This document shows positions 4,900-22,221 of a stretch of DNA of 64,000 nucleotides, in pieces. The translations under genes and the position numbers were made by a program. Positions within the stretch are counted from its first letter, which is position 1. Every line of letters starts with the position of its first letter. A model generated the notes under the pieces. The model was not told the origin of the DNA, searched no databases, and saw nothing but the letters and a program-made list of their open reading frames with translations. Location: contig JBGCFQ010000011.1 of assembly GCA_045106985.1 (NCBI GenBank), positions 131,890 to 195,889 on the forward strand, given 5' to 3'. The stretch is from Pseudomonadales bacterium. GTDB lineage: Bacteria; Pseudomonadota; Gammaproteobacteria; Pseudomonadales; JAUIET01.

Positions 4900-5227
4900 C
4901 GTCCCTCCCGGTTGCCACCGCAACGCCGCCATTCTTGACCATTTCATCCAAAACGGAATCTGGAAACTCGGCCTCAACCTTCGCCATTTCTTCCTGTGCA
5001 CAAGCATCAAGGTCGCCGTCACACTCTATGGGGGTCATCTCTTGACGCCACTGTTGTACATAAGAATCGGTATCACCCATGCCAGCGCGCATTGCAGCGC
5101 GGTCCACTGCCTCATGAAACCGTGCCGCGAACAGCGCCTTTCCTTTAGTGCGCCCGCGTTTTATATTTATTTGGGTAGGAATATCCCGCCAAAATACTGT
5201 AATTTTCTGAGCCCCGGATCGAGCCAT
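4886..5227 (-). CDS. small conserved protein, function unknown (resembles the family annotated 'virulence factor' domain that accompanies MetF/MetV; the name is from memory only)
   Basis: 113 aa. Operon position is between DUF1638 and the MetV-like gene, with a 14-nt overlap onto the next gene. N-terminus is ITVFWRDIPTQINIKRGR. Confidence 0.6.
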   Translation of the reverse strand: MARSGAQKITVFWRDIPTQINIKRGRTKGKALFAARFHEAVDRAAMRAGMGDTDSYVQQWRQEMTPIECDGDLDACAQEEMAKVEAEFPDSVLDEMVKNGGVAVATGRDDVPS

Positions 5228-5256
5228 AGTTACGCCCTACTCTATAATGTGTGCTG

Positions 5257-5877
5257 TTAGCCTTTCGCTATTAACGATTCAAGACTGGTTTGTAGCTCAC
5301 CGTAACCGGTGCGCTGGTATACATACTCAAGCTTTAATCTGTCAGCTGCTGCTTGCGCCTGCTTCTGTAAGTCCTGATCATCGGTTTGCGCGAGATAAAC
5401 AAGGCGTCGATAGTTCGCGAAGTACATCTCTTCCAATTCAGGATGCTTATCAATCTTCAAGCCACGAATCATTAGCCGATCAAAATGACGGGTTAAGAAA
5501 TCAGTCAGGTACAACGTACCCGGCTCTTGATCAGCCAATTCCAGAAAGTCTTGTTGCCCAGAAAAAAAAGAATAGCAGTGCGGACCAGGCAATCTCTCCA
5601 GGCCATACTCAGCTATTATTTTGTCGATTTCACCACCTGTTCCACAGTCTGCATAACCGACAAAGATTTGATCGTATTCATCACGATATTTACTTATCGC
5701 TTCACGCAATCGATCAGGAATCCATTCTGGGCGGTTATGCAACTCCGCTGGCAGGCACTGCAGTTTTAGATGCGACCAGCCATTCGATTTTTTTATTTGC
5801 TCTATTTCTTTAGCTATCGCGCCGCAGGCGATAATAAGAGTGTCTTGAGGCTTCTGAGCTGGATCGGCCATGGTCAA
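5257..5877 (-). CDS. DUF1638-family protein (commonly linked to corrinoid methyltransferase genes)
   Basis: 206 aa. Pattern: LIIACGAIAKEI...LHNRPEWIPDRL...YADCGTGGEID...PHCYSFF. Sits immediately downstream of the corrinoid protein. Confidence 0.7.
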   Translation of the reverse strand: MTMADPAQKPQDTLIIACGAIAKEIEQIKKSNGWSHLKLQCLPAELHNRPEWIPDRLREAISKYRDEYDQIFVGYADCGTGGEIDKIIAEYGLERLPGPHCYSFFSGQQDFLELADQEPGTLYLTDFLTRHFDRLMIRGLKIDKHPELEEMYFANYRRLVYLAQTDDQDLQKQAQAAADRLKLEYVYQRTGYGELQTSLESLIAKG

Positions 5878-5923
5878 GATCTTTCGGAGTAGCCTATGGC
5901 GAGTCAGACGAGCAACATCCGCG

Positions 5924-6628
5924 TCACGCGGACTGCTTCGTCTTCACCATAGCCAAACCCACGCTGGCTGCCGTTGCAGCATCTCGGCAATAGGCATCTG
6001 CGCCGACGGCTTCGCCGAACTCTTCGTTCAACGGCGCGCCGCCAACTAATACAATAAAGTCGTCGCGCATGCCCTTCTCTTTCAAGGTGTCAATCACTAC
6101 CTTCATATATGGCATCGTCGTGGTTAACAATGCAGACATGCCTAACACATCAGGCTTGTGTTCTTCGAGAGCATCGAGGTAGGAATCAACATCATTATTG
6201 ATTCCAAGATCAACAACCTCAAAGCCGTTGCCCTCCATCATCATGGTAACCAGGTTCTTACCGATATCATGAATATCACCTTTGACAGTACCGATGACCA
6301 TTTTGCCGATTGGCTTTGCGCCAGTTTCAGCAAGTAACGGCCGTAGAATACCCATTCCGCCTTTCATCGCGTTTGCCGAAAGCAACACTTCAGGCACAAA
6401 CAATATTCCATCGCGAAAATCGATACCAACAATTCGCATACCTTCAACTAGCGCATCTGCCAGCACCTTTTCCGGGCCCCAGCCTCTTGCTAGCAAGATG
6501 TTGGTACCTTCCATGATTTCATCTCGCATGCCATCATAAAGGTCGTCATGCATTTGTTCGACTAACTCGTCATCCGATAATTCTTCAAGATTGAGTTCTT
6601 CTTCGTCGTGGCCATCTTGTTCTGACAT
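5924..6628 (-). CDS. cobalamin-binding corrinoid protein (MtgC/MttC-like)
   Basis: 234 aa. Carries the B12-binding DxHxxG motif (GDIHDIGKN) followed by SALLTTT and GGAPLN. About 29 aa at the N-terminus form an acidic extension (MSEQDGHDEEELNLEELSDDELVEQMHDD). Confidence 0.85.
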   Translation of the reverse strand: MSEQDGHDEEELNLEELSDDELVEQMHDDLYDGMRDEIMEGTNILLARGWGPEKVLADALVEGMRIVGIDFRDGILFVPEVLLSANAMKGGMGILRPLLAETGAKPIGKMVIGTVKGDIHDIGKNLVTMMMEGNGFEVVDLGINNDVDSYLDALEEHKPDVLGMSALLTTTMPYMKVVIDTLKEKGMRDDFIVLVGGAPLNEEFGEAVGADAYCRDAATAASVGLAMVKTKQSA

Positions 6629-6690
6629 GGATTGATCCTCTTCTTATGATTGAGCTTAAGCAGCTCAGCCGATATTCTAGTAGTAAGTAT

Positions 6691-8247
6691 CTAGTATTCT
6701 TTATCTGGAAACGCTGACTTTCGTTGGTCGATAAATGCAATCAAAGCTTCATCTATAGCGGGGTCTAGTGCCGGCGCTTGGTAGTCCGACAACGCCGCTT
6801 TCCAGCGTTTATTCGCCAACTGCGCGCAATCAAGCGCCCCGTCTTCTTCCCATTGTTCAAAACTGTTATTGTCGGCTAAAGTCGAACGATAGAAAGCAGT
6901 CTCGAAATTTGCTTGCGTGTGTTCGGTGCCGAGGAAATGATTGCCCGGTTCAATCTCACGGAATGCACTCATCGCCTGGCCATTCTCAGACATATCCGGA
7001 CCTCGAAGCAATACACCAAGCATGTTAGCCTGATCAGCATCCATCATGAATTTTTCATAGCTCATGACCAAGCCGCCTTCAAGCCAGCCGGCCGTATGCA
7101 GCATAAAATTAACGCCAGCGAGAGCCGCTGTCTGTAAAGTGTTAGCCGCTTCATAGGCAGCTTGCGCATCGGGCAACTTCGAGGCGCACAAACCACCACC
7201 GCTCCTAAATGGTACACCTAGGCGACGCGCTAGTGCAGCGGCAATGTAAAGAATCATGCTGGGCTCAGGCACACCAAAGGTGGGCGCTCCGGACTGCATG
7301 GACACCGCGCTTGCAAATGTACCAAATACAACGGGGGCACCCGGGCGAACCATTTGAGCAAAGGCCATACCAGCCATTGCCTCTGCCAATATTTGAGTGG
7401 ATGTTCCGGCAACTGTCACCGGCGACATTGCGCCGGCAAGAATAAACGGCGATATTACAGTAGCCTGCATATTGCGCGCATACACCTTAAGCGCACCTAA
7501 CATCGTATCGTCAAACGTCATCGGTGAATTGGCGTTTATAAGGCTGGTGCAGACTGTGTTGTTTTCAACGAACTCATCGCCGAACACAATCTTAGCCATA
7601 TCAACTGTGTCCTGGGCTCGCTCTGGCGCGGTCACCGAACCCATAAATGGCTTGTCGCTGTATTTTATATGGCTATACACCATATCAAAGTGACGTTTGT
7701 TCACTGGAAGATCGACCGGCTCGCACACTGTGCCGCCTGAATGCTGCAGGCCATCGCTTAAGTAAGCCAATTTTACGAAGTTACGGAAATCTTCAATCGA
7801 TGCGTAGCGTCGACCTTTATCGAGATCTCTCACAAAGGGAGAACCGTAGGCCGGCACCATAACTGTGCGGCGGCCACCAATGATTGTACTTTTGGCGGGG
7901 TTACGAGCGTGCTGGGTGTATTCAGAGGGTGCAGACGCTTGAATTATGCTGCGACAAAGGCCACGTGGAAAACGAACACGTTCACCCTGAACGTCGGCGC
8001 CACCGGCTTTAAGAATATCGAGCGCTTCCTGGTCGTCGCGAAAATCGATACCTATTTCTTCTAATAAGGTATCAGCATTATGTTCAATTAAGGCCAATCC
8101 CGACTCATCGAGCATTTCGTAGTAAGGTATATTGCGATCGATGTAGGGCAAGTAATTGGTTTGATTGCCCTGCCGCGAAGCTTGTTTACCGCTTCGTCCA
8201 CCCGCTTTTCTTCGACTACGTCTTTCGCTCATAGGGCACAATTCCAA
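6691..8247 (-). CDS. MttB-superfamily (trimethylamine methyltransferase family) substrate:corrinoid methyltransferase, non-pyrrolysine type
   Basis: 518 aa, continuous ORF with no in-frame TAG. Family pattern: NIPYYEMLDESGLALIEHNADTLLEEIGIDF...FPRGL. The N-terminus is Arg/Lys-rich (SERRSRRKAGGRSGK). An alternative start is the ATG at 8232. Confidence 0.8.
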   Translation of the reverse strand: MELCPMSERRSRRKAGGRSGKQASRQGNQTNYLPYIDRNIPYYEMLDESGLALIEHNADTLLEEIGIDFRDDQEALDILKAGGADVQGERVRFPRGLCRSIIQASAPSEYTQHARNPAKSTIIGGRRTVMVPAYGSPFVRDLDKGRRYASIEDFRNFVKLAYLSDGLQHSGGTVCEPVDLPVNKRHFDMVYSHIKYSDKPFMGSVTAPERAQDTVDMAKIVFGDEFVENNTVCTSLINANSPMTFDDTMLGALKVYARNMQATVISPFILAGAMSPVTVAGTSTQILAEAMAGMAFAQMVRPGAPVVFGTFASAVSMQSGAPTFGVPEPSMILYIAAALARRLGVPFRSGGGLCASKLPDAQAAYEAANTLQTAALAGVNFMLHTAGWLEGGLVMSYEKFMMDADQANMLGVLLRGPDMSENGQAMSAFREIEPGNHFLGTEHTQANFETAFYRSTLADNNSFEQWEEDGALDCAQLANKRWKAALSDYQAPALDPAIDEALIAFIDQRKSAFPDKEY

Positions 8248-8453: not shown

Positions 8454-9158
8454 TCATGAATTAGTATGCGCCCTAACAAAGGCTTGCATATGGAAAGCCG
8501 CATGCTCTGGGTGATACTGATACTCCTGAGCCACTGGACAGGCACGCCTAGCGAGGCAACCCCGCTTATTACACTCTGCGTCAGGTTTACTCTTCAGATA
8601 TGAAGCACACTTATCAACATCGTAGTGTCCTGGCGAAAATGCCTCAACAGGGCAAGCGCGCAAGCAAGGTTGTGAATAACATGTATCGCAACGGGATATA
8701 GCACGAGGGCGGGTAGTGTCTGACAAACCATATTCAACGTTGCTCGCAACCAAGGCAAATCGGTAAGCATGCCAAAGACCGTATTCTTTATGAATATGCA
8801 CCCCTAGTTGAGATGTCGCTGATAAGCCTGCCCGCTCAGCCCAGCTCAAAAACGGCCAATATGGCGGCCCCTCGGACGGAAAGAGCACTGAGCAACCGTG
8901 TTGTTCGGCAATAGACTCCCCTACTCTTTTGCTCCATCGATCTAAACTGTGCTGCTTGCCGTCAAGGCATTCATTTGAACAGCTGAAACCAGGCCAAAAT
9001 GTTGACCCAAAAGACCCTACTAAAATGATCGACGCTGGTTCGCGTAGGCCTAACCCTGCCAACTCGCTTCCTTCTGCTCGTACAACGGCCAACATATCCA
9101 AACCGAATACCTGAACTCGCTTACGTATATTTTGAAGCAGATCGCTTGTACTTGTCAT
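8454..9158 (-). CDS. 4Fe-4S cluster protein, QueG/reductive-dehalogenase-like C-terminal region
   Basis: 234 aa. Cys motifs: CDTCYSQPCLRACPVEAF and CASYLKSKPDAECNKRGCLARRACP. Same strand as the mttB-like gene and 206 nt upstream of it. Confidence 0.55.
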   Translation of the reverse strand: MTSTSDLLQNIRKRVQVFGLDMLAVVRAEGSELAGLGLREPASIILVGSFGSTFWPGFSCSNECLDGKQHSLDRWSKRVGESIAEQHGCSVLFPSEGPPYWPFLSWAERAGLSATSQLGVHIHKEYGLWHAYRFALVASNVEYGLSDTTRPRAISRCDTCYSQPCLRACPVEAFSPGHYDVDKCASYLKSKPDAECNKRGCLARRACPVAQEYQYHPEHAAFHMQAFVRAHTNS

Positions 9159-9682: not shown

Positions 9683-12499
9683 ATGTTTGAACGAAGCAAA
9701 CTTAGCGCGGCAGTGGCTTCTGCCTTGGCAGTAAGTATATCTGCCGGCACAGCCCAGGCGCAGATGCTCGAAGAAATTATTGTAACGGCTACAAAGCGTG
9801 CAGAAAGCATGCAAGACGTACCTATTTCAATTCAAGCACTGGGCGGCGAAAGCTTGAAAGAGCTTCGCGTAGAGACCTTCGATCGCTACGTAGCTTACTT
9901 ACCCAACGTGGTGAATGCAGGTAACGGACCAGGCAAGAAAGAAATTTACATTCGTGGTACAGCCACAGAGCAATCGTCGGTAACGGTTGGTCCCGCTCAG
10001 GGATCAGCGCCGGGTGTTGCACTCTACTTAGACGAAATGCCTGTTTCCTTCGGCGCACGTAACCTTGATATATACGCTGCTGATTTAGAAAGAATAGAAG
10101 TGTTGGCTGGACCACAAGGCACCTTGTTTGGCGCCAGCTCGCAGTCGGGTACTGTTCGCCTAATTACAAACAAGCCTTCGGTTGAAGGATTTGATGCAGG
10201 TTTTAACTCCAAGTTCTCTAGTACTTCAGGCGGCGGCGAAAGCGCTGCAGCCGATGTCTTTGTTAACATCCCTCTGTCCGATAAGTTGGCTGTGAGAGCA
10301 ACTATATACAGTGACAACCAAGGCGGCTGGATAGACAACGTTCCATCAACCTTTACACCTAGTGGCGCAGTTGTTGACCGCAACAGTCTTGGCTTCGGCC
10401 CCGCGCTCACCGGCGCTGACTCAGTGGCGACCGCTAGAAACGACACCATAGCGTCTGACGATTGGAATGATGCGTCTTATCGCGGTGTTCGTTTAGGCCT
10501 TAAGTACGATATCAATGATGATTGGGATATCTTGGTCCAACACACTGAACAAACCCTTGATGTTGATGGCAGCTTCCTGTCTGATCCAAGCTTGGGTGGC
10601 GATTCGAACGCAGCGAAGTTCATTCCTGAAACAAACAAAGATGAGTTTGGCCTAACGACGTGGACTTTAAATGGTCGTGTAGCAAACCTTGACATCGTTT
10701 ATACCGGGGGATTCCTCGACAGAGACGTAAGCAATAACATCGATTACACCCACTACAACAATGGTGGTGGTTACATAACTTATTACCTGTGTAGCGGTAA
10801 CGTTTACGATGCGACAGACGTTAACAACTGTTTCGACCCGACTAAGCAGTATGCTGAAACAACAACTAATGAGAGAACCACGCACGAATTCAGAATTTCA
10901 ACAGATCCTGATAACCGTTGGAGAGCAATTGGTGGCCTTTACTACAACGATGTTGAAACCACGCACATTGGTGAATTCCAATATCTATCAACTAACGCAG
11001 CTTTTGAAGAGCAAACCAACAGCTATTACAACGATAATCGTGGCGACGGCTTTTTATTGGGCAACACTACCATTCCCAATACTTCGGGCACGGTATCAGT
11101 AGGCCCAAGAAGTCCCGCTACCGTCTTCTTCAACGATTTCACTCGAACAGAAGATGAATTTGCAATTTTTGGTGAGTTTGCATTCGATTTCACTGACACA
11201 GTAAGTGCACGCGTAAGTGGCCGCTATTACAAGCTGACATCAGAATTGGAAGGCGCTTCGAACTTCTCGTTTGGCTGTCGATACGGCGCGGGCGGTTTCG
11301 GCAACTCTGACATAACAGCTGACGGCCGTTGCGATGGAACTGGTTTCAGCAACGACGTAACACAGCGACTGGAATTGTTAGGTCAAGCAAACGCGACTGG
11401 CGATCTAGCTCCAATACTGGCGGCAACGTCCCCGAACGGCGGACGTGATTTCTTCCGTGGTGGCGGTGGCGCATTCCCAGGCTCTAACCAGGCGATTGCT
11501 GATGCAATCACTAGTGGCGGACTGGACATCAGTAACATCGAAACTGATGGCTCTACTGAAGAAGATGACATCATCGTAAAGGCCACTATCGACTGGCGTG
11601 TAACCGACGACATCATGTTGTTTGGTACATATTCTGAAGGCTACCGACCTGCCACTCAGAACCGTAATGCTGGCAGACTAGCCGCCAACCAGACTGGTGT
11701 TTATCTCGGTTACAGAGTACCTACAGTGGCACTGACTGACACATTGACCAACTTTGAATTTGGCATGAAAGGTGAATTTCTTGAAGGCGCTCTTCGCTTG
11801 AACGCGACCCTGTTCTTCTCAGAAATTGATAACCTGCAGGTGTCACGCTTCGACCCATCAAACGTAGCGTTCTTGGTATTCATGGAGAACATTGGCGACG
11901 CAGAGATCACTGGTCTTGATGCTGACTTCCAGTGGGCTGCCACTGAAAACCTGACCATCACCGGTGCTTTTAGCATTCTGGATACTGAGTTGACTCGCTT
12001 AAACCCACAGCTTGATGGCGTAGCGGTTCCGGTTGGTAGCGAGCTGCCACTAAGTTCTGACTTCTCTGGCAACATACGCGCTCGATACGACTTTCCACTA
12101 ACCGCGCTTGGCGGTGACGGCTATGTTTCTGTTGGTGTTAACTATAAGGGCGACAGTGCTGCGGGGATCGTAGGAAGTGCTGCATTCCTTGAAGATACGT
12201 TGCTGTTAGCAACAGGTCGAAGCTCAGGACTGGAAATCCAGAACGAAGGTGGCAATTTTGGTACTGTTGACCTTTCAACGGGTGGCTTACCATCCAACTC
12301 GCGTTACGTGAACCCTGCGTCTACTACAATTAACCTCTCCGCCGGTGTCAACAAAGATTCCTGGACAGCTGAATTGTTCGTAGACAATGTTGGTGACGAG
12401 GAAGCTACCTTTGTACAAACTGCTGGTAAGTTCACGCCTGAGGTAACTAATCAGCGACCACGCACAGTTGGCTTACGTGTTTCATACGACTTTGAATAA
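9683..12499 (+). CDS. TonB-dependent outer-membrane receptor
   Basis: 938 aa. Signal peptide (…SAGTAQA/QM), plug-domain motif EEIIVTATKRAESMQDVPISIQAL and a C-terminal beta-barrel ending RTVGLRVSYDFE. Confidence 0.9.
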   Translation: MFERSKLSAAVASALAVSISAGTAQAQMLEEIIVTATKRAESMQDVPISIQALGGESLKELRVETFDRYVAYLPNVVNAGNGPGKKEIYIRGTATEQSSVTVGPAQGSAPGVALYLDEMPVSFGARNLDIYAADLERIEVLAGPQGTLFGASSQSGTVRLITNKPSVEGFDAGFNSKFSSTSGGGESAAADVFVNIPLSDKLAVRATIYSDNQGGWIDNVPSTFTPSGAVVDRNSLGFGPALTGADSVATARNDTIASDDWNDASYRGVRLGLKYDINDDWDILVQHTEQTLDVDGSFLSDPSLGGDSNAAKFIPETNKDEFGLTTWTLNGRVANLDIVYTGGFLDRDVSNNIDYTHYNNGGGYITYYLCSGNVYDATDVNNCFDPTKQYAETTTNERTTHEFRISTDPDNRWRAIGGLYYNDVETTHIGEFQYLSTNAAFEEQTNSYYNDNRGDGFLLGNTTIPNTSGTVSVGPRSPATVFFNDFTRTEDEFAIFGEFAFDFTDTVSARVSGRYYKLTSELEGASNFSFGCRYGAGGFGNSDITADGRCDGTGFSNDVTQRLELLGQANATGDLAPILAATSPNGGRDFFRGGGGAFPGSNQAIADAITSGGLDISNIETDGSTEEDDIIVKATIDWRVTDDIMLFGTYSEGYRPATQNRNAGRLAANQTGVYLGYRVPTVALTDTLTNFEFGMKGEFLEGALRLNATLFFSEIDNLQVSRFDPSNVAFLVFMENIGDAEITGLDADFQWAATENLTITGAFSILDTELTRLNPQLDGVAVPVGSELPLSSDFSGNIRARYDFPLTALGGDGYVSVGVNYKGDSAAGIVGSAAFLEDTLLLATGRSSGLEIQNEGGNFGTVDLSTGGLPSNSRYVNPASTTINLSAGVNKDSWTAELFVDNVGDEEATFVQTAGKFTPEVTNQRPRTVGLRVSYDFE

Positions 12500-12582
12500 A
12501 AACTGAGTTGTAGGATACTAGGGAGAGGACAGGTTCCGCTCTCTAGTCAACATGCCAGACTCTGGTAAGTAAATACAAGAAA

Positions 12583-12607
12583 GGCGAGCTTCGGGCTCGT
12601 CTTTTTT
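12583..12607 (+). terminator. rho-independent terminator after the TonB-dependent receptor
   Basis: GGCGAGC-ttcgg-GCTCGTC forms a 7-bp stem with one G-U pair. It is followed by TTTTTT at 12602-12607. Confidence 0.7.
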
Positions 12608-12641
12608 GCTTTAGCTTATACCTTATTACCACTCCTACTCG

Positions 12642-14675
12642 ATGTTGCGATCTCCAACTATGACTGAACACCAAACGCCCTCCTCACAAGAAGACAAATT
12701 AGCTCTCGCAAGAGAGTTACTCGGTAAGAAACAGTTTAGTGAGTCGGACGCGATAACCAGTGAACTGCTGGCTGAGGACCCTCAAAATATTGACGCCGCC
12801 TATGTGCGAGCCGTTTCGATGCGTTTACAGAAAAAATCGAACTCCAGTCTTGAACTACTTGAACAAGTACTCCAAGACAAACCCGACTATGGCCGCGCCT
12901 TTCAAGAACGCGGATTCAACTACTTAACTCTGAGAGATGTTGCCCAGGCAGGCACAGCATTTGAACGTGCAGTGGCCCTTGATCCGTCATTGCTTGCGAG
13001 CTGGAAGTCTTTAACCGGGTTATACAAGAAGGTTGGAAACAACTCACAAACTGAAAAAGCCCAAGAACAAGTGTCCTTTCTTGAGAAACTGCCAACTGAG
13101 CTACTAACTGTTATCAGCTATATTTCTGAAGGCAAACTTAACGACGCTGAAAGACTGTGCAAATACTATCTTCGCTCAGACAAGCTTAATGTAGAGGGCA
13201 TGCGCCTATTAGCCGAGATCGCAACAAGGCAGAAAGTACTAGATGATGCAGAGTTTCTGCTAGAGACTTGCATAGAGTTAGAACCTGATCATTTGAACGC
13301 CCAAATTCAGTTCATAAATATTCTTCTTAGAGTTCAGAAGTTCAGCAAGGCGTATCAGTACGCAACCGCATTGCTAGAAAAACATCCAGAAGATCGAGCT
13401 CTTGTATTGGCACTGTATGCCTCTGCTTGCACCGGTGTTGGTGAAAACAACAAAGCTATCAGTTGTTACCAAGAGCTCATCAGGGAAACACCAGACAACC
13501 ATTTTTATCAAGTGTCGCTTGCCCATGTCTACAAGTCTGATGGCGATTTTGCGCGTGCTGTAGAGCACTATCAGAAAGCCTACACCATCAGAGCCGATTA
13601 TGGCGACGCCTATTGGAGTTTAGCCAACACAAAGACCTATAAGTTCAGCGACGCAGAAATCGCGCAGATGACGGGTGAGGAACAAAAAGAAAGCACAAGT
13701 CCTGACGATAAAACCCAGCTCTGTTTCGCATTAGGTAAAGCAATGGAGGACAGCAGTAACTTTGAGCAATCATTTCAGTTTTATGAAAGGGGTAATGCAC
13801 TAAAGCTCTCAAGCGTGAAACATAATGCAGTGCAACTGCAGCGGCGAATAGACTCTCAAATTGAGACCTGTACGAAATCACTATTTGAGCAAAGAAAAGA
13901 CTGTGGATTTGACGATGAATCGCCAATATTCATCGTAGGCCTTCCTCGCGCGGGCTCTACCCTGATTGAACAGATTCTCTCCTCACACTCCTTGGTGGAT
14001 GGCACCATGGAGCTACACAACATCCTGAACCTGGCAAAACGCTTACGTGGTCGAGATGAAAGCCCCGGGAGTATGCCGAACTATCCGAAAATTCTGACCG
14101 AGCTAGACAGCGATTACTTCCGTCGCTTTGGCCAACAGTTCATAAATGACACTGCAGCATACAGGGAAAGTGGAACTTACTTTACAGATAAAATGCCCAA
14201 TAACTTTTTTCATGTGGGACTTATAAAATTGATTCTCCCAAATGCCAAAGTAATAGACGCTCGGCGAAACCCAATGGCCTGTTGCTTCAGTGGATTCAAA
14301 CAATTGTTTGGCGAAGGCCAGGAGTTTTCTTACGGCCTGGAAGAAATCGGTAATTACTATCGTCAGTACGTTAAGCTGATGCAACATTGGGACGAGGAAT
14401 TGCCCGGTTTTGTATTGCGAGTAAATCATGAGGATGTAGTTGCTAATCTTGAAACAGAAGTTCGACGGATCCTCGATTATTGTGGTCTCCCTTTCGAACA
14501 AGCATGTTTGGATTACCATAAGACTGAAAGGAATGTTCGAACGCCTAGTTCTGAACAAGTTCGCCAACCTATCTATACCAGCGGTTTAGATCAATGGCGT
14601 AATTTCGAACCCTTTTTGGAGCCATTAAAACAGGCCTTGGGCTCGGATATTCTGCAGAGTTACTCCATTGATTAA
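12642..14675 (+). CDS. TPR-repeat protein fused to a PAPS-dependent sulfotransferase domain (TPST-like Sulfotransfer_3 type)
   Basis: 677 aa. The N-terminal ~420 aa are TPR-like repeats. The C-terminal domain has the 5'-PSB loop GLPRAGSTLIEQIL and a 3'-PB-like segment RNPMACCFSGFKQLF. Confidence 0.8.
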   Translation: MLRSPTMTEHQTPSSQEDKLALARELLGKKQFSESDAITSELLAEDPQNIDAAYVRAVSMRLQKKSNSSLELLEQVLQDKPDYGRAFQERGFNYLTLRDVAQAGTAFERAVALDPSLLASWKSLTGLYKKVGNNSQTEKAQEQVSFLEKLPTELLTVISYISEGKLNDAERLCKYYLRSDKLNVEGMRLLAEIATRQKVLDDAEFLLETCIELEPDHLNAQIQFINILLRVQKFSKAYQYATALLEKHPEDRALVLALYASACTGVGENNKAISCYQELIRETPDNHFYQVSLAHVYKSDGDFARAVEHYQKAYTIRADYGDAYWSLANTKTYKFSDAEIAQMTGEEQKESTSPDDKTQLCFALGKAMEDSSNFEQSFQFYERGNALKLSSVKHNAVQLQRRIDSQIETCTKSLFEQRKDCGFDDESPIFIVGLPRAGSTLIEQILSSHSLVDGTMELHNILNLAKRLRGRDESPGSMPNYPKILTELDSDYFRRFGQQFINDTAAYRESGTYFTDKMPNNFFHVGLIKLILPNAKVIDARRNPMACCFSGFKQLFGEGQEFSYGLEEIGNYYRQYVKLMQHWDEELPGFVLRVNHEDVVANLETEVRRILDYCGLPFEQACLDYHKTERNVRTPSSEQVRQPIYTSGLDQWRNFEPFLEPLKQALGSDILQSYSID

Positions 14676-14710
14676 GCGACCCACATGCGCGCCTTGATAA
14701 GAATAGAATC

Positions 14711-15349
14711 TTGATTATTTCTCATCAGCACAAGTTTATTTTTTTCGCGGTTCCGAAAACCGCGACGCATTCGGTGCGAGAATTGCTTAGAATGCATATG
14801 GGCTCTAGCGACTGGGAGCAGCAAGCTCTTTATGGCAAGCAGGCTCTGCCGATTCCGGCGCTAGCCAAGCTTATTCACGGTCATATCAGTGTGCAGGAAA
14901 TCAAACCCCATTTGGACGCGGCGGCCTGGCAGAATTATGTCAAATTTGGTTTTGTGAGAAACCCTTACGATCGATTTATATCGGTTTGTTTTTTTCTTAA
15001 CAGAAACAATGAACAGTTTGCAGGCCAGGCCTTGAGTTGGATGAAAGCTGCCCTAAGTCGCGACCAATTTCGTCAGCGAATTCTGGTTAGGCCACAATAC
15101 CAGCAACTTATTGATCACAACGGCGATATAGCACTCGACTATGTCGCCAGGTACGAGAGTATTGACAAATCGCTGGTGGAGCTATCCGAATTACTGAAGC
15201 TGCCCTTCTCAGCCTTGCCAACTAAAAACAGTTCAGAGCATGGCGCCTACACTGCCTATTATGATGATGAGTTACGCGAGATGGTCAGCGAGTTCTATCA
15301 GGACGATTTCAAAATGTTCAACTACAGCTATAACTACAAAAGCGAGTAA
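14711..15349 (+). CDS. sulfotransferase family-2-like protein
   Basis: 212 aa with a TTG start. The N-terminal FIFFAVPKTATHSVRELL matches the PKT(A/G)(T/S) PAPS-binding loop of family-2 sulfotransferases. Confidence 0.65.
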   Translation: MIISHQHKFIFFAVPKTATHSVRELLRMHMGSSDWEQQALYGKQALPIPALAKLIHGHISVQEIKPHLDAAAWQNYVKFGFVRNPYDRFISVCFFLNRNNEQFAGQALSWMKAALSRDQFRQRILVRPQYQQLIDHNGDIALDYVARYESIDKSLVELSELLKLPFSALPTKNSSEHGAYTAYYDDELREMVSEFYQDDFKMFNYSYNYKSE

Positions 15350-15361
15350 GTTGAAGCGGCA

Positions 15362-16348
15362 TCAATCACCCTGATTCAAAAAATCATCGCTCAACTCTTT
15401 ATTCAGGGCCGCTCTCAGTATTCGCTGCATAATGATCGGATTTACGCCAAGCTTATTGCTATTAGTCACGAGTGCGCGCATTTCCGGATGCATTTTTGAT
15501 TTGGCTGTCTCTAATACCGATTGATACAGCGGCCAGCCAGATTTATGGTAGCCATGTAAAAGCCATACCTCTCTCCAATCCTTACATAAATCCAATAATA
15601 GAGTTTTGTAATGAAGAACAATTCTTTTGTCGTTCGCCGGGTTGGCCTCAAAATCTGCGATCAAACCTTGTGCTAAAGCGTCCATTTCTCCTGGCGCCAT
15701 TACTGGCGCGGAATTGAAACGCTCTGTACTAATGTCGACTTTCGCTCCTGGCTTATACGGTAACGTTTGAGGCTGTCGAATGTCGCTGCCCTCTTCTTGA
15801 GCCTGTCTAACCATGCCCCAAAACCTGGAAGAACCAGCGGTGTCTAACACCAAATGAGTACGATCGAAGTCACTGCTATTGATGACATTGTGATGTCTCC
15901 AGGAATCGAAAATCCAACACTCTCCAGCTTGCATATGCACTTGCTCATCACCACAATAAAACAGCACTTCGGGAAAGGTAACAATCGGGATGTGAATGCG
16001 TACTCGTGTGTACCAATGATAATTGAAGTCGACATGGCGACTTACTTCACTGCCGGCGGCCAACTTCATCAGACGTGAGCGGCCCAGCACCTCGCCGAAG
16101 CTAGCCAACACCTGTTGCAAGTACTCACACCGCTGCAAATGTCTAGTGGCTTGCATATGGCCAGAGAATTCGTTGTTGTCCTTGCCGTCTCGGGCAATTA
16201 GAGGGATAGCAGAATTGCCGACAAGACCCGAAGGATGAGCCATCCACTGAGTATCATCTAGGCTCGCGAGTTCATGCTGCAAGCGTTCAACATCAAACTG
16301 CAATGGAAGCTTGACGAATGGTTGGGTGAGTTCCATAAGGCTATCCAA
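15362..16348 (-). CDS. aspartyl/asparaginyl beta-hydroxylase-family (cupin, Fe/2OG-type) protein
   Basis: 328 aa. Core segment: LMKLAAGSEVSRHVDFNYHWYTRVRIHIPIVT...GECWIFDSWRHHNVIN, typical of the Asp/Asn beta-hydroxylase family. Confidence 0.7.
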   Translation of the reverse strand: MDSLMELTQPFVKLPLQFDVERLQHELASLDDTQWMAHPSGLVGNSAIPLIARDGKDNNEFSGHMQATRHLQRCEYLQQVLASFGEVLGRSRLMKLAAGSEVSRHVDFNYHWYTRVRIHIPIVTFPEVLFYCGDEQVHMQAGECWIFDSWRHHNVINSSDFDRTHLVLDTAGSSRFWGMVRQAQEEGSDIRQPQTLPYKPGAKVDISTERFNSAPVMAPGEMDALAQGLIADFEANPANDKRIVLHYKTLLLDLCKDWREVWLLHGYHKSGWPLYQSVLETAKSKMHPEMRALVTNSNKLGVNPIIMQRILRAALNKELSDDFLNQGD

Positions 16349-16560: not shown

Positions 16561-17877
16561 ATGCCGAGAAGAAAGGCAGAGAGCAAAATAACAAAAAGCA
16601 TACAAAGATCTAAAGCTGAAGTTAGCGCCGCTGGATCAGAGCTTCACCATCTAAATCTGGGGCCTGGAGAAGCTCTCGAAAAAGAATGGCAGGCCGCTGG
16701 ACTTACTCTGCCCAACTTGCCACAAATGCGTGAATACCGGCTACAGCGAGTCGTAGATCAGCTAAACAAAATGGGCTACGACGGCGCACTACTCTTCGAC
16801 CCAATGAACATTCGCTACGTCACCGATTCAACCAACATGCAATTGTGGGTAATGCATAACAACTCTCGTTATGTTTGGGTTGGAGCCGACGGCTCGGTTG
16901 TACTTTGGGACTACGTTGAGTGCGAGTTTCTCTCCGCACATAACCCTCTGATCAAAGACGTGCGTCCTGCTGTAAACACCATATTTTTTCTGGCAGGTAC
17001 CCGCTATGCAGAAAAAACTGACGCGTGGGCTGCCGATGTCTATAGCGTTATTGAACGGCACGCTGGCCGCAAACCTCGTATAGCCATCGATCAGTGCTGC
17101 TACCTCGGTTATAAAGCATTAGAGGGCTTTGGCGTGAGAATTGAGAGTGGCCAAGAGATGATGGAGTATGCCAGAGCAATAAAATCGCCTGATGAAGTCA
17201 ATGCTATGAAGTGCGCTGTTCACGCCTGTGAGGCGTCTATGGACGATATGTGGCGCGCCTTCCAGCCAGGTATGACTGAACGAGAGTTATGGTCAATACT
17301 CCACGCAGGTAATATCAAGCGTGCGGGCGAATGGATAGAAACACAATTACTATGTTCTGGACCAAGAACCAATCCCTGGATGCAAGAAGCTAGCAGTAGA
17401 GTGATTCAAGAAGGCGACGTAGTGGCTTACGATACGGACTTGATCGGCGCCTACGGTATGCTGGTCGACATTTCGCGAAGCTGGGTGGCCGGCAGCGTGT
17501 CGCCCTCTCCTTCGCAACAAGCTACTTATGACATGGCACGGCAACAGGTAGAGCTTAACGCCGAATTACTGACAGCTGGTAGGTCATTCAAAGAACTCAG
17601 CGATCTAGCCTGGTTCCCTGCAGTAGAAGACTATCGTCACTACGGCATGCTTTATCATGGCGCTGGGCAATGCGATGAATACCCAGAGATTCCGTTTCCG
17701 CATAATTGGGAGTCCGCCGGTTTCGACGGCGAGCTTGAGTCGGGGATGGTGTTAACCAGCGAAGCCTACGTTGGACCACGTGCAGGAGGAGAAGGAATTA
17801 AGCTGGAACAACAATACTTAGTCACTGAAAATGGGCCTGAACTGCTCAGCCATTATCCAATGGACTTTGTGCGCTAG
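16561..17877 (+). CDS. dddP: M24 metallopeptidase-fold protein, DddP-like (candidate DMSP lyase)
   Basis: 438 aa. Several long segments match my recollection of Roseobacter DddP: LLFDPMNIRYVTDSTNMQLW, AGEWIETQLLCSGPRTNPWMQE, YDTDLIGAYGMLVDISRSW, HGAGQCDEYP and IKLEQQYLVTENGPELL. The symbol is tentative. Confidence 0.6.
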   Translation: MPRRKAESKITKSIQRSKAEVSAAGSELHHLNLGPGEALEKEWQAAGLTLPNLPQMREYRLQRVVDQLNKMGYDGALLFDPMNIRYVTDSTNMQLWVMHNNSRYVWVGADGSVVLWDYVECEFLSAHNPLIKDVRPAVNTIFFLAGTRYAEKTDAWAADVYSVIERHAGRKPRIAIDQCCYLGYKALEGFGVRIESGQEMMEYARAIKSPDEVNAMKCAVHACEASMDDMWRAFQPGMTERELWSILHAGNIKRAGEWIETQLLCSGPRTNPWMQEASSRVIQEGDVVAYDTDLIGAYGMLVDISRSWVAGSVSPSPSQQATYDMARQQVELNAELLTAGRSFKELSDLAWFPAVEDYRHYGMLYHGAGQCDEYPEIPFPHNWESAGFDGELESGMVLTSEAYVGPRAGGEGIKLEQQYLVTENGPELLSHYPMDFVR

Positions 17878-21102: not shown

Positions 21103-22221
21103 CTATGGCGCTACAGCTTCCCAGCTATCAAAGCCCATTGGCGTGTATATACCGAACACGCAGTTTTCATGCATGCCATAGCCGATGTCGCCGTTCGACA
21201 ACTGCCAACGGCACAACATCTCATTCAAGCCCTGAATCTGGGCAAATTGCTCGGGATCCGTCATATCCCACTGCTGCCCTTCTACTTTAAGCGCACCTTG
21301 ATACACACCCAAGGAGTGCGGAGTGCCCGGCGAATAGCCTGAACCACCCAGAAGATAATTGGTTCGTAGCGGCGTGCCGGTAAGCACTAAGTCCGAGTGC
21401 GCAAAGGTGATAACCGTTTTTGCAATTTCCCGTGTGCCCGACTTGTATGTGAAATTGGCTTTGGGACTGCCCAGGTGAATCACGGGTTCATCAATTCCGA
21501 ACCGGGGAACTTTAACCGCCTCTTCTTGCATCCGATTGCCTTGCCCGTCTTCATCAAAATACACCTTAATCATGTAGTCATCGAATTGGGCTGGAATCCA
21601 GTTGTGGTAGTGACCGAAGGTTTCGTAATCGCGGTATTTCGCGTTAACACCAACTGGCTCCATTTCGCCAACATTAGGACGAATGCCCCAGGAATGGTCT
21701 CTGGCTCCCATCCATCGGTCAGGCGTAACATCGAATCGCTTGCCGTCTACATTGATATGACCCGTATAATTCCCGACTTGTGCGAATCGTTGGGTATGCT
21801 CCATAAGACGGTTGCCTGAACGCCTATAAGTAACCGGTTCTTCCAAGGCTGGAACGAAACCATCAAACACCAAATCAAAGTCCACACCATGCTCATTGGG
21901 TGCGCAACTGAGTTTTAATTTGCGTAAGCCTTCCAACACTTCAATTTTGAACGGTCCAACACTGGTATCCAGTCGATCTATGCCTAGTTCACGTGAGGCA
22001 CGAACGCAGTAATGCGTGTCGCGATAGGAGACCGTTACGAAGGCATCAATAACATCTAGGTTGGGATACTGGCCCATGCCAGTGACGATAAACAGTTCGT
22101 CATCGCAGCCGTGAATATTAAAATAATAGCGGTCGTAGAAGTTTCGATCGCCCGTGTATACGTGGTCAAATGTTTCAGGGGTTTGATGGGCTAATAAATC
22201 ATCTAAAGGACTGAGAGGCAT
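21103..22221 (-). CDS. conserved hypothetical protein (no family recognised)
   Basis: The track ORF is 21103..22329. I trimmed it to the ATG at 22221, which is preceded by AAGGAG at 5-nt spacing and removes the overlap with the MipA-like gene. It begins MPLSPLDDLLAHQTPETFDHV. Confidence 0.6.
   Translation of the reverse strand: MPLSPLDDLLAHQTPETFDHVYTGDRNFYDRYYFNIHGCDDELFIVTGMGQYPNLDVIDAFVTVSYRDTHYCVRASRELGIDRLDTSVGPFKIEVLEGLRKLKLSCAPNEHGVDFDLVFDGFVPALEEPVTYRRSGNRLMEHTQRFAQVGNYTGHINVDGKRFDVTPDRWMGARDHSWGIRPNVGEMEPVGVNAKYRDYETFGHYHNWIPAQFDDYMIKVYFDEDGQGNRMQEEAVKVPRFGIDEPVIHLGSPKANFTYKSGTREIAKTVITFAHSDLVLTGTPLRTNYLLGGSGYSPGTPHSLGVYQGALKVEGQQWDMTDPEQFAQIQGLNEMLCRWQLSNGDIGYGMHENCVFGIYTPMGFDSWEAVAP

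Follow-up and report, generated by a model that had tools for sequence, protein, structure and literature searches.

A TonB-dependent receptor paired with a TPR-fused, TPST-like sulfotransferase in betaine catabolic islands of Proteobacteria

Results

The window, by which we mean the whole 64,000-nucleotide stretch of Pseudomonadales DNA analysed here, contains four adjoining genes that encode a TonB-dependent receptor (TBDR), a sulfotransferase fused to TPR repeats (TPR-ST), a family-2 sulfotransferase (ST2) and an Fe(II)/2-oxoglutarate oxygenase (Table 1). All four open reading frames named in a preliminary description of the locus are present and each family assignment is backed by Pfam; the translations also contain the loops quoted there, GLPRAGSTL in TPR-ST and AVPKTATHS in ST2. 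The database copies of TPR-ST (P0001, 671 aa, starting at Met7) and of the oxygenase (P0121, 324 aa, starting MELTQ) are slightly shorter than the longest open reading frames. The receptor has a Sec signal peptide, a TonB-box-like sequence (EEIIVTATKR), a plug and a beta-barrel, and no signal peptide was found in the translations of TPR-ST, ST2 or the oxygenase. A full-text literature search returned no published function or characterisation of the receptor/TPR-ST pair and, as had been supposed, no characterised member of the larger gene combination.

Table 1. Location of the genes, domains and other features discussed, in window coordinates
Feature	Position	Strand	Description
Corrinoid-dependent quaternary-amine demethylation system	267-8247	-	Complete; divergent from TBDR, immediately upstream; Pfam
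TonB-dependent receptor (TBDR)	9683-12499	+	938 aa; Pfam Plug E 1e-13, TonB_dep_Rec_b-barrel E 1e-25
Tyr-rich, Cys-bracketed loop motif of receptor	10742-10840	+	Residues 354-386
Terminator-like hairpin	12576-12608	+	Scan: 15 pairs and a run of T; in the 142-nt TBDR/TPR-ST spacer
TPR + TPST-like sulfotransferase (TPR-ST)	12642-14675	+	677 aa; multiple TPR families; Sulfotransfer_3 E 8e-47, residues 428-619
N-terminal TPR superhelix of TPR-ST	12642-13892	+	About 11-12 repeats, ORF residues ~16-417; Pfam TPR families
TPST-like PAPS sulfotransferase domain of TPR-ST	13926-14675	+	Sulfotransfer_3 E 8e-47
Family-2 sulfotransferase (ST2)	14711-15349	+	212 aa; Pfam Sulfotransfer_2 E 2e-18; accessory gene
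Fe(II)/2-oxoglutarate oxygenase, Asp_Arg_Hydrox family	15362-16348	-	328 aa; PF05118 E 5e-15; accessory gene
DddP-like M24 metallohydrolase	16561-17877	+	463 bits against NCBIfam DddP (cut-off 600, not reached)

The neighbourhood is strongly conserved across relatives, and the four-gene combination is far from a chance arrangement because it recurs in many genomes. Within it the receptor and TPR-ST form the core. A TBDR gene lies immediately 5' of TPR-ST, on the same strand, in 77 of 80 TPR-ST-anchored genome loci from Gamma- and Alphaproteobacteria, and reciprocally TPR-ST lies immediately 3' of the receptor in 65 of 68 evaluable TBDR-anchored metagenome loci, at receptor identities down to 31%. 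Four loci carry two independent receptor/TPR-ST pairs. Over its whole length TPR-ST shares 47-62% identity between Alpha- and Gammaproteobacteria, while the receptors drop to ~33%. ST2 and the hydroxylase, which had been described as part of one four-gene cluster, are only accessories, found next to the pair in 15-16 of the 80 genome loci and within one sub-clade, to which the window belongs (ST2 also adjoins the pair in twelve further loci). Neither the neighbour clusters nor a small-ORF search revealed a conserved third gene or small ORF accompanying the pair, and the search for small ORFs as potential substrates that had been suggested gave no conserved candidate precursor peptide nearby. 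We conclude that TBDR and TPR-ST are a widespread, almost obligatory two-gene module of marine and soil Proteobacteria.

The preliminary description cautioned that a terminator separates the receptor from the sulfotransferase genes. The hairpin is indeed there, but it is no argument against linkage given the adjacency above and the fact that 42 of 74 homologous TBDR/TPR-ST spacers (median ~100 nt) contain a similar hairpin and T-run. A scan of the window spacer found no promoter-like site between the two genes. Its frequent recurrence makes it look less like an operon boundary than like an attenuator; an attenuator or a 3' structure that stabilises the transcript is its probable role.

The TPR superhelix of TPR-ST is modelled with pLDDT above 90 across helices 10-411 (AF2), its best fold matches are the TPR domains of OGT and SPINDLY, and its invariant polar residues cluster in repeats 3, 5-6 and 10-11. 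OGT, SPINDLY and HMW1C have the same design, a TPR (or all-alpha) domain followed by a nucleotide-donor transferase, although the catalytic domain of TPR-ST is a P-loop sulfotransferase and not GT41, making this a likeness of design and not catalytic homology; those enzymes modify unfolded proteins, whereas protein modification by TPR-ST is a proposal. That the sulfotransferase domain is TPST-like was borne out. Its profile finds TPST1/TPST2 as the best solved matches (E 2e-12 to 9e-9), with CurM-type and related polyketide-synthase sulfotransferases close behind (E 6e-10 to 8e-9). The motifs PRAGST, GT-E-L, DKMPNNF, DARR..S and RTPSSEQVRQPI are invariant in TPR-ST and align with TPST residues, such that all TPST catalytic residues (the 5'-PSB Arg, the catalytic Glu, Lys and Ser) and the 3'-PB motif are invariant; judged by residue conservation, the catalytic site is intact. 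TPR-ST shares the Sulfotransfer_3 family with human TPST1/TPST2 and with RaxST of Xanthomonas oryzae and, like RaxST, is bacterial and cytoplasmic, whereas the TPSTs are Golgi type-II membrane proteins. It differs from all of these in being fused to a ~400-aa TPR superhelix and paired with a TonB-dependent receptor, and from RaxST in that no RaxX-like precursor gene or RaxA/RaxB exporter adjoins it.

Turning to the accessory genes, the oxygenase had been regarded as AspH-like, of a kind that usually modifies proteins. It does share the PF05118 family with AspH and LpxO, yet it is nearer to free L-proline 3-/4-hydroxylases than to any solved AspH: it matches the Streptomyces proline 3-hydroxylase 1e5r (E 2e-4) and the Mesorhizobium cis-4-hydroxylase 4p7w (E 0.045), both weakly, while no solved AspH chain matches at E <= 1. 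Modification of proteins therefore does not follow for this enzyme. Its H101-x-D103, H149 and R159 do not vary among 20 homologues and align with the His-x-Asp, His and Arg of 1e5r; we take them to be the His-x-Asp...His iron triad and the Arg that binds 2OG. A conserved ~150-aa C-terminal helical extension sets it apart from proline hydroxylases, AspH and LpxO. Three genomes encode a fusion of a hydroxylase-like domain with a Sulfotransfer_3 domain. The family of ST2 (Sulfotransfer_2) is known mostly from carbohydrate and small-molecule sulfation.

The receptor carries a distinctive loop, residues 354-386, that reads D-Y-T-H-Y-N-N-G-G-G-Y-I-T-Y-Y-L-C ... C-F-D-P. Among 41 partner receptors of 33-69% identity D354, Y355, Y358, G362 and Y368 are invariant and Y367, C370, C383 and P386 recur in 90% or more, and D354-Y355, Y358, G362 and Y367-Y368 form the densest cluster of invariant residues among the extracellular loops. 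By strand counting in an AF2 model of modest quality (pLDDT 63, plug unmodelled, barrel strands seen) the motif, flanked by strands 336-354 and 388-407, is extracellular loop 4. A receptor variant with an extra tyrosine, 'GG[GA]Y', co-occurs with ST2/hydroxylase (20 / 3 / 1 / 64; Fisher 1e-15, kinship ignored), a correlation that probably reflects one or few clades. The plug region is most similar to those of siderophore and colicin receptors. Upstream of the receptor no Fur box was found above chance, the best match (12/19) being commonly reached by shuffles.

The module lies within islands whose genes serve to take up and degrade betaines and other quaternary ammonium compounds, a setting that the preliminary description had passed over. 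The demethylation system divergent from the window receptor comprises genes for a RACo activase, a pterin-binding methyltransferase, a two-part MTHFR, DUF1638, a B12-binding corrinoid protein and a non-Pyl MttB-family methyltransferase; MttB/B12 genes also flank the pair in five other loci. Relatives of the DddP-like metallohydrolase recur in three loci, and in one more an M24 peptidase, known by its Pfam label only, lies near the pair. Overall the neighbours include BCCT carriers (26/80 genome and 30/68 metagenome loci), the MttB and corrinoid system, and DMGDH-, GbcA-, GBBH- and BetA-like enzymes of betaine, choline and carnitine uptake or catabolism, with quaternary-amine markers in 51 of 80 genome loci; most score under the NCBIfam equivalog cut-offs, so that exact substrates may differ. 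They are members or close paralogues of described systems (BetT/BCCT, BetA/BetB, GbcAB, DgcAB/DMGDH, SoxBDAG, MtgB-type MttB, carnitine dehydrogenase/BKACE), to which the pair adds a TonB-dependent receptor and a sulfotransferase; to our knowledge no described betaine, choline or carnitine locus has a dedicated one of either. Both the inner-membrane carrier (BCCT, MFS or none found) and the catabolic enzymes (MttB-corrinoid, Rieske, GMC/ALDH, GBBH-like, carnitine DH/BKACE or HAL-like) differ between loci, leaving the receptor as the sole invariant partner of TPR-ST. Several loci resemble glycine-betaine to dimethylglycine routes (MttB with two DMGDH-like genes). From these neighbours only, we infer that the receptor's cargo is a trimethylammonium-type nutrient.

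Discussion

We tentatively propose that the receptor itself is the substrate of the cytoplasmic TPR-ST, which would modify its Tyr-rich 'DY' loop before export. This reading is favoured because the receptor is the only constant partner while carriers and catabolic enzymes vary, because several loci suggest glycine betaine, which by its structure has no sulfatable hydroxyl, because a TPST-like catalytic site joined to an OGT/SPINDLY-like TPR design looks protein-modifying, because the tyrosine cluster of loop 4 offers a candidate acceptor, and because no conserved small ORF was found that could be a separate peptide substrate. Also in its favour are the near-constant adjacency of the two genes, the conserved polar patches of the TPR, the higher conservation of TPR-ST than of the receptors, the co-occurrence of the GG[GA]Y variant with the accessory genes and the lack of signal peptides on the three enzymes. 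An Asp at position -1 is a determinant common to RaxST, plant and animal TPST sites, and HMW1C provides a precedent for a cytoplasmic, OGT-like glycosyltransferase that modifies a Sec-exported adhesin of its own operon. Sulfation of the receptor is nevertheless the speculative step, whereas the module, its pairing, its setting and the intact catalytic sites are observed. We know of no sulfotyrosine on a bacterial outer-membrane protein, which counts against it, and the loop motif can be explained otherwise, since a loop rich in unmodified tyrosines can itself cage trimethylammonium by cation-pi contacts; the motif may also be a simple clade hallmark. Three likenesses weaken the proposal further: the sulfotransferase domain is nearly as close to the CurM-type and related polyketide-synthase enzymes, whose substrates are carrier-bound small molecules, as to the TPSTs; the oxygenase is similar to hydroxylases of free amino acids; and the family of ST2 is known mostly for carbohydrate and small-molecule sulfation.

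These last observations would fit the main alternative, a role in processing the cargo, which we consider possible but rather doubtful. Here the cytoplasmic sulfotransferases would O-sulfate a hydroxyl-bearing quaternary amine (choline, carnitine, hydroxyproline betaine or homoserine betaine) imported by the receptor with a BCCT or MFS carrier, the proline-hydroxylase-like oxygenase of the accessory sub-clade hydroxylating it first; the product might serve as an osmolyte or sulfur store resembling choline-O-sulfate, or sulfation might turn the hydroxyl into a leaving group, as CurM chemistry does. Enzymes adjoining TonB-dependent receptors usually act on the cargo, and the consistent betaine/choline/carnitine setting agrees with this. 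Against it, the 400-aa, highly conserved TPR domain would have no role, the sulfotransferase is tied to the receptor and not to the variable carrier or catabolic enzymes, and several contexts indicate glycine betaine. It would also spend PAPS within a catabolic route, for which we know of no precedent; the pathways known for choline, carnitine and betaine need no sulfotransferase to be complete, and no sulfatase appears among the recurrent gene clusters or Pfam-labelled neighbours of the loci. The hydroxylase-sulfotransferase fusions do suit the 'hydroxylate then sulfate' logic put forward for metabolites (Iyer et al. 2010, PMC2938197).

It is unlikely that TPR-ST instead sulfates a protein or peptide encoded elsewhere, such as part of the energising TonB/ExbBD complex, a regulator or some secreted peptide, on which the receptor depends indirectly. 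The catalytic site and TPR architecture would suit such a target, and a TPR-ST far more conserved than the receptor is what a universally conserved partner would lead one to expect, but this leaves unexplained that every TPR-ST paralogue adjoins a receptor of its own, also in loci with two pairs, and no third gene or small ORF is conserved with the pair.

A secreted, sulfated or hydroxylated siderophore-like metabolite, made here and re-imported by the receptor, is more improbable still. Iyer, Abhiman, de Souza and Aravind (2010, PMC2938197) proposed this reading for neighbourhoods of TonB-type receptor, dioxygenase, halogenase and SapC genes; related neighbourhoods in that paper, like the window cluster, combine a receptor with a double-stranded beta-helix (2OG) oxygenase and sulfotransferases, and the similarity of the plug to siderophore receptors points the same way. 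In contrast to those neighbourhoods, however, halogenase, SapC, JmjC, NRPS and collagen-like substrate genes are not apparent among the labels of recurrent neighbours here, and NRPS, NIS, halogenase, SapC and exporter genes were not seen among the recurrent clusters and Pfam-labelled neighbours of 80 + 80 loci. Most loci have only the receptor and one sulfotransferase, the neighbours are catabolic and not biosynthetic, and the receptor lacks an upstream Fur box above chance. Finally, that the receptor and enzyme genes are mere neighbours across a terminator, as the strong hairpin might imply, is scarcely credible in view of their conserved adjacency and orientation in two proteobacterial classes, the recurrence of the hairpin itself and the lack of a promoter-like site 5' of TPR-ST in the window spacer.

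In the proposed scheme, a trimethylammonium-type nutrient would pass the outer membrane through the receptor and the inner membrane through a BCCT or MFS carrier, after which the MttB-corrinoid, DMGDH-, GbcA-, GBBH- or BetA-like enzymes encoded nearby would demethylate or oxidise it. TPR-ST, made at a lower level through read-through of the intergenic hairpin, would act on the cytoplasmic receptor precursor and not on the nutrient: its TPR groove would grip the unfolded chain, as in OGT or SPINDLY, while the TPST-like domain would O-sulfate at least one tyrosine of the 'D-Y-x-x-Y...Y-Y-x-C' motif that later becomes extracellular loop 4. In the sub-clade with the extra loop tyrosine (GGGY), the hydroxylase and ST2 may contribute further modifications. 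After Sec export and BAM insertion, the loop would form an anionic, aromatic cage for permanently cationic substrates.

The four genes and their products

The four ORFs lie where the preliminary description had placed them, and for each Pfam agrees with the family it had assigned: a TonB-dependent receptor, a TPST-like sulfotransferase fused to TPR repeats (TPR-ST), a family-2 sulfotransferase (ST2) and an Asp/Asn beta-hydroxylase-family protein (the hydroxylase). The loops that it had read, PRAGST in TPR-ST and PKTAT in ST2, are both present in the translations. The database copy of TPR-ST begins at Met7 of the longest ORF, and that of the hydroxylase likewise starts a few codons inside its longest ORF. 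Inspection of the translations found no signal peptide in TPR-ST, ST2 or the hydroxylase, so all three should be cytoplasmic, where PAPS is.

Features of the window discussed in the text
Feature	Coordinates	Strand	Length	Evidence
Corrinoid methyl-transfer system	267-8247	-		Complete; divergent from receptor
Cys-rich ORF	8454-9158	-	234 aa	No Pfam match
TonB-dependent receptor	9683-12499	+	938 aa	Pfam Plug and TonB-dependent barrel
Hairpin with T-run	12576-12608			
TPR-ST	12642-14675	+	677 aa	Pfam many TPR families and Sulfotransfer_3 (PF13469, E 8e-47)
ST2	14711-15349	+	212 aa	Pfam Sulfotransfer_2 (E 2e-18)
Hydroxylase	15362-16348	-	328 aa	Pfam Asp_Arg_Hydrox (PF05118, E 5e-15); Fe/2OG oxygenase
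DddP-like M24 hydrolase	16561-17877	+		NCBIfam DMSP-lyase DddP 463 bits, below 600 cut-off
ORF adjoining MipA-family gene	21103-22329	-	408 aa	No Pfam match
TauD-family dioxygenase and FAD-dependent oxidoreductase	24390-26726	-		Taurine-dioxygenase model 230 bits, cut-off 313
Three tandem tRNA genes	59186-59637	-		Rfam tRNA, 58-71 bits

The receptor and TPR-ST form a conserved pair

Using an alignment of 24 TPR-ST homologues, 80 loci were retrieved from one-genome-per-species contigs of Gammaproteobacteria (Pseudomonadales, Cellvibrionales, Halieaceae, Porticoccaceae, Arenicella, Alteromonadales, Woeseiaceae, Steroidobacteraceae) and Alphaproteobacteria (Sphingomonadales, Parvularculaceae, Hellea, Emcibacter, Rhodothalassium). 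TPR-ST is directly preceded by a TonB-dependent receptor gene on the same strand in 77 of these 80 genome loci, and in two of the three exceptions the contig end falls just before TPR-ST. The reverse set, anchored on the receptor, comprised 80 metagenome loci with receptors 31-63% identical to that of the window; here TPR-ST lies directly 3' of the receptor in 65 of the 68 loci having at least 700 nt downstream. Whichever of the two genes is taken as the anchor, its partner is thus almost invariably present. The neighbourhood comparison proposed in the preliminary description thus came out clearly for these two genes, and its treatment of all four as equals did not hold, since just 15 of the 80 genome loci contain ST2 and 16 contain the hydroxylase, all of them closer relatives. 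The terminator-like hairpin that it had reported between the receptor and TPR-ST was found again; the caution about the receptor link that it drew from this hairpin underestimated the association.

The spacer between the paired genes is short (median near 100 nt), and in 42 of 74 spacers it contains a stable hairpin followed by a T-run. No promoter-like site was found between the two genes in the window. A recurrent hairpin between two such consistently paired, co-oriented genes is most readily interpreted as a putative attenuator or 3'-stabiliser, which would yield much receptor transcript and little enzyme transcript. Upstream of the receptor, comparison of related loci showed no shared regulatory element, these regions being too diverged, and no riboswitch was detected; the Rfam families in the window are limited to tRNA, including three tandem genes.

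Two separate receptor/TPR-ST pairs are present in some related loci (L012, L054, L068, L153), and cultured carriers of the pair include Colwellia, Glaciecola, Paraglaciecola, Alteromonas, Endozoicomonas and Rhodothalassium. Second pairs in L012, L038, L054, L068 and L076 have shorter TPR-ST paralogues (~520 aa, fewer repeats) beside TonB-dependent receptors, sometimes in the reversed order with TPR-ST first. Because these paralogues are also paired with receptors, the theme reaches beyond the orthologous group studied.

TPR-ST has a TPST-type active site

The TPR-ST family is very large: at E ≤ 1e-30 it takes in 12,444 cluster representatives (clusters of 50% identity). An AF2 model (pLDDT 80.9) contains 11-12 TPR repeats with pLDDT above 90 and, C-terminal to them, a catalytic domain of lower confidence. 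Searches of solved structures with the full sequence returned only TPR proteins, as did Foldseek with the full model, the best matches being the TPR superhelices of SPINDLY and O-GlcNAc transferase (OGT). The catalytic domain was therefore searched alone as a profile, and its top matches were TPST1 and TPST2 (E 2e-12 to 9e-9), which together with the repeats seen by Pfam and AF2 bears out the earlier assignment as a TPR-fused, TPST-like enzyme. Next came CurM-type and related polyketide-synthase sulfotransferases (E 6e-10 to 8e-9), which act on non-peptide acceptors and are almost as similar to TPR-ST as the TPSTs.

The invariant segments PRAGST, G-T-x-E-L, D-K-M-P-N-N-F, D-A-R-R...S and R-T-P-S-S-E-Q-V-R-Q-P align with the TPST 5'-phosphosulfate-binding loop, catalytic Glu, Lys, 3'-phosphate-binding motif and Ser, respectively. 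The 5'-phosphosulfate-binding loop (P-R-x-G-S/T-T) reads GLPRAGSTL against GVPRSGTTL in TPST, with P19, R20, G22, S23 and T24 invariant in 20 sequences. The 3'-phosphate-binding motif (R...S) reads DARR-P-x-x-CCFS against RDGRA...S; R125, R126, C131, C132 and F133 are invariant in the same number of sequences and S134 is conserved in at least 90%. The positions of the catalytic Glu, Lys and Ser lie in the invariant segments G-T-x-E41-L, D-K101-M-P and T218-x-S220-x-x-Q-V, aligned with GEET, NKDP and RSTDQV of TPST; in TPST2 the catalytic residues are E99, K158 and S285. Since these segments align with the TPST catalytic motifs, TPR-ST is in all likelihood catalytically active, a sulfotransferase that uses PAPS and has a TPST-type active site.

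Invariant polar residues of the TPR part are concentrated in repeats 3, 5-6 and 10-11, clusters that would fit a specific macromolecular ligand. Several TPR-ST-related cluster representatives (P0362 of 2492 aa, P0368, P0375, P0381, P0385 and others) run to 1,100-2,500 aa and align with the query over 2-6 separate segments, as if TPR-sulfotransferase units were arranged in tandem within a single chain; they may be eukaryotic or assembly artefacts.

Partner receptors share a tyrosine-rich loop motif

The receptor has a Plug domain (Pfam, E 1e-13, residues 43-157), whose region matches FyuA, CirA and FpvA chains, and a C-terminal barrel, a structure of 22 strands in this receptor class (Pfam, E 1e-25). 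Its signal peptide and TonB box were read by eye as MFERSKLSAAVASALAVSISAGTAQA and QMLEEIIVTATKR, and the VTA of the TonB box is invariant in 41 homologues. An AF2 model built from database homologues is mediocre (pLDDT 63, plug unmodelled) and gives long antiparallel strands over residues 171-935, their number being inexact at the C-terminal end.

Partner receptors share the motif D354-Y355-[TSA]-x-Y358-x3-G362-x4-Y367-Y368-x-C370 ... C383-x-[DA]-P386; NIDYTHYNNGGGYITYYL is one peptide from this loop. D354, Y355, Y358, G362 and Y368 are invariant in 41 receptors of 33-69% identity, and the motif recurs in most metagenome receptors. No other extracellular loop of the receptor has invariant residues packed so densely. 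In the AF2 model it falls between strands 336-354 and 388-407, which, counted from the first barrel strand, makes it the predicted extracellular loop 4. TPR-ST is unusually well conserved and retains 47-62% full-length identity between Alpha- and Gammaproteobacteria, whereas partner receptors fall to about 33%; the enzyme is conserved at the level of the loop motif, unlike the variable remainder of the receptor.

Of the 21 loci with ST2 or the hydroxylase, 20 have a motif variant with one more tyrosine, GG[GA]Y, as do 3 of the 67 loci with neither gene (Fisher 1e-15, a test that ignores shared ancestry), and this correlation may reflect a single clade. Elsewhere in the receptor, residues ~524-624 form a very long loop (~100 aa) between strands 507-523 and 625-639, with two helices and with Cys532 and Cys550 invariant among close homologues.

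The accessory genes

H101, D103, H149 and R159 of the hydroxylase (His-x-Asp, distal His and 2OG-binding Arg) are invariant in 20 homologues, and a C-terminal extension of ~150 aa is conserved. By sequence its only solved relatives are Streptomyces proline 3-hydroxylase 1e5r (E 2e-4), proline cis-4-hydroxylase 4p7w (E 0.045) and two small 'beta-hydroxylase' chains (E ~0.3), the match to the proline hydroxylases being weak and covering ~110 residues with the triad aligned. The NCBIfam model 'nonproteinogenic amino acid hydroxylase' scored 21.7 bits against a cut-off of 300, and no solved AspH chain matched at E ≤ 1. AspH acts on Asp/Asn of EGF-like domains with the consensus C-x-D/N-x4-F/Y-x-C. 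No EGF-like protein occurs in the neighbourhood of the hydroxylase, and the receptor loop has part of this consensus, N359-x4-Y364.

The Pfam PF03567 match of ST2 spans all 212 aa and includes, besides PKTAT, the motif RNPYDRFIS; no solved relative was found by sequence. In one Pseudomonadales MAG and two Arenicella MAGs, single ORFs of ~624-645 aa directly 3' of TPR-ST (L009:12191-14065, L020:12001-13890, L026:11995-13926) match the window hydroxylase with 200-226 bits (phmmer; L026 219 bits). Asp_Arg_Hydrox is joined to Sulfotransfer_3 by Pfam in L009 and L020, L026 being recognised by the phmmer hydroxylase match only. Such hydroxylase-sulfotransferase fusions indicate that hydroxylation is tied functionally to sulfation. 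A homologue fusing TPR-ST to ST2 (P0072) was discounted; it comes from a long-read contig of 2.36x coverage and may be an assembly error.

The pair lies among genes of betaine-type catabolism

The corrinoid system divergent from the receptor encodes an RACo activase, a pterin-binding methyltransferase, a split MTHFR (two parts), a DUF1638 protein, a B12-binding protein and MttB, an uninterrupted (non-Pyl) member of its family. Its substrate may be glycine betaine, proline betaine, carnitine or another compound. The system is complete in an apparently aerobic gammaproteobacterial MAG. The Cys-rich ORF between MttB and the receptor shows a faint match (21 bits) to the epoxyqueuosine reductase QueG, a B12/Fe-S enzyme, and may serve the corrinoid genes as an Fe-S accessory protein. 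B12 uptake by the receptor, a reading prompted by the corrinoid genes, was rejected: Rfam finds no cobalamin riboswitch in the window, and the BtuB model TIGR01779 scores 36 bits against a cut-off of 600.

On the other side, relatives of the DddP-like hydrolase stand beside the pair in L004, L031 and L163, with an M24 peptidase, by Pfam label only, nearby in L081; this enzyme may act on a betaine- or sulfonium-type compound other than DMSP. The ORF beside the MipA-family gene and the TauD-family/FAD-dependent genes may belong to further organosulfur or amine catabolism.

Recurrent neighbours of the pair in the 80 genome loci, by cluster
Neighbour	Loci	Remark
BCCT carrier	26	Usually flush with the pair
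Aldehyde dehydrogenase	18	Betaine-aldehyde-DH-like
MR/MLE enolase-superfamily enzyme	14	
GMC oxidoreductase	13	Choline-dehydrogenase-like, 565 bits
HIBADH-like dehydrogenase	13	
MarR regulator	13	
MFS carrier	12	
DAO-type oxidase	11	
PurU	8	
TauD-family enzyme	6	Best matches gamma-butyrobetaine and trimethylaminoethylphosphonate dioxygenases
HAL/PAL-type lyase	4	
Rieske oxygenase	3	

The preliminary description had missed the betaine-type neighbours that run through the related loci. At least one such quaternary-amine marker lies within 10 kb in 51 of the 80 loci (phmmer, 1e-20). Genomes carry few BCCT genes by our own estimate, so finding one flush with the pair in between a quarter and a half of loci greatly exceeds expectation, the expectation itself being an estimate. 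In L082 the four genes are surrounded by a GBBH-like dioxygenase, BKACE, a carnitine-dehydrogenase-type 3HCDH, a Rieske oxygenase and SoxA/SoxG (Pfam). L084 and L085 have MttB and two DMGDH-type genes, the former with a B12-binding protein and the latter with ETF and BCCT, and in L081 an AspH-like gene is followed by the receptor, TPR-ST, ST2, BCCT and PhyH, adjoined by DMGDH-type and Rieske genes. Because the catabolic enzymes differ between loci, the receptors probably take up trimethylammonium-type nutrients in general, with a specificity that changes from clade to clade. In Steroidobacteraceae-type loci (L054, L058, L068, L076) an aromatic-amino-acid-lyase (HAL/PAL-family) gene follows the receptor; ergothionase is a member of this family, which makes a histidine-betaine or ergothioneine-type substrate conceivable in these loci.

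No conserved peptide gene accompanies the pair

The small conserved ORFs that had been suggested as candidate substrates were not found near the pair. Stop-to-stop ORFs from the intergenic regions of the window gave no tblastn match in related loci L001-L166, and the regions themselves gave no nucleotide match there. When 1,805 small intergenic ORFs from all loci were clustered, the widest family reached 7 loci, and the largest families appear to be tRNA genes mistaken for ORFs. No exporter of the peptidase-type ABC kind, as in RaxST-RaxX, occurs among the recurrent neighbours. In the RaxST-RaxX system a small precursor-peptide gene and an ABC exporter are adjacent, whereas neither recurs beside the present pair; a RaxX-like precursor was rejected, there being no conserved intergenic ORF of the window in L001-L166 and no widely common small-ORF family.

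What does the sulfotransferase modify?

Our preferred model, held tentatively and with confidence short of even, is that TPR-ST modifies the receptor. The TPST-type active site and OGT-like design would favour a protein substrate, and the receptor, as the only gene always accompanying TPR-ST, would be the favoured one. The parallel conservation of TPR-ST and the loop motif and the lack of a separate peptide gene would both count in the same direction, as would the opening of the motif with Asp-Tyr, a determinant that known sites of tyrosine sulfation have in common. A precedent is HMW1C, which in the cytoplasm modifies a surface protein that is encoded in the same operon and exported by Sec.

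More specifically, and rather doubtfully, the cytoplasmic, OGT-like TPR-ST would sulfate the Tyr cluster of its cognate receptor before Sec export. Loop 4 would then form a sulfotyrosine/aromatic cage that captures scarce quaternary-ammonium osmolytes, binding them at very low concentrations, and in one clade the hydroxylase and ST2 would elaborate this site. Against modification of the receptor, we know of no sulfated bacterial outer-membrane protein, and the Tyr-rich loop, even unmodified, could plausibly act as a cation-pi cage.

Sulfation of the cargo is an unlikely but serious competitor. Enzymes beside TonB-dependent receptors normally process cargo; the near-equal similarity of CurM-type enzymes to TPR-ST and the resemblance of the accessory oxygenase to a free-amino-acid hydroxylase would likewise weigh against the receptor model. 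Several contexts look like catabolism of glycine betaine, which has no sulfatable group and would thus argue against cargo. That TPR-ST acts on some other protein would suit its TPST-type site and OGT-like design; with the receptor as its one constant companion, we consider this quite unlikely.

Neighbourhoods combining a TonB-type receptor, 2OG dioxygenase, halogenase and SapC, sometimes with a sulfotransferase, have been predicted to make siderophore-like metabolites, and a 'hydroxylate then sulfate' scheme has been proposed for collagen-like proteins (Iyer et al. 2010, PMC2938197). The recurrent neighbours of the present module differ from those loci in having no halogenase, SapC or NRPS, and in their catabolic context. 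A secreted siderophore-like metabolite is accordingly improbable here, as the best Fur-box match upstream of the receptor (12/19) lies within the shuffle range and is not above chance, and no synthetase-like gene, of NRPS or NIS type, is among the recurrent clusters of 160 loci; a siderophore locus was rejected on the same grounds. That the near-obligatory partners are functionally unlinked is very improbable indeed. A small share of the probability is given to none of these readings.

In summary, the parts of this module belong to known families, and the module is a new and very widespread variant of the TonB-dependent uptake locus, to which a sulfotransferase is tightly coupled. A full-text literature search found no paper on the receptor/TPR-sulfotransferase pair, in keeping with the earlier statement that the combination is uncharacterised, and none on a betaine TonB-dependent receptor. 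Betaines, choline, carnitine and DMSP-like compounds are major carbon, nitrogen and methyl-group currencies of the sea. To our knowledge, their uptake has been described at the inner membrane, through BCCT and ABC carriers, whereas a step of their own at the outer membrane has not.

Looking forward, both readings, of receptor or cargo as substrate, are directly testable because cultured strains carry the pair. The analysis indicates a large receptor clade devoted to betaine-type compounds, each receptor locked to a TPST-like enzyme. If the cargo is modified, this would be an unrecognised bacterial route to sulfated osmolytes; if the receptor is, tyrosine sulfation would be a maturation step for bacterial surface proteins. 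In the latter case the receptor would be the first sulfated bacterial outer-membrane protein and the first outer-membrane entry route dedicated to betaines; the family comprises more than 12,000 sequence clusters.
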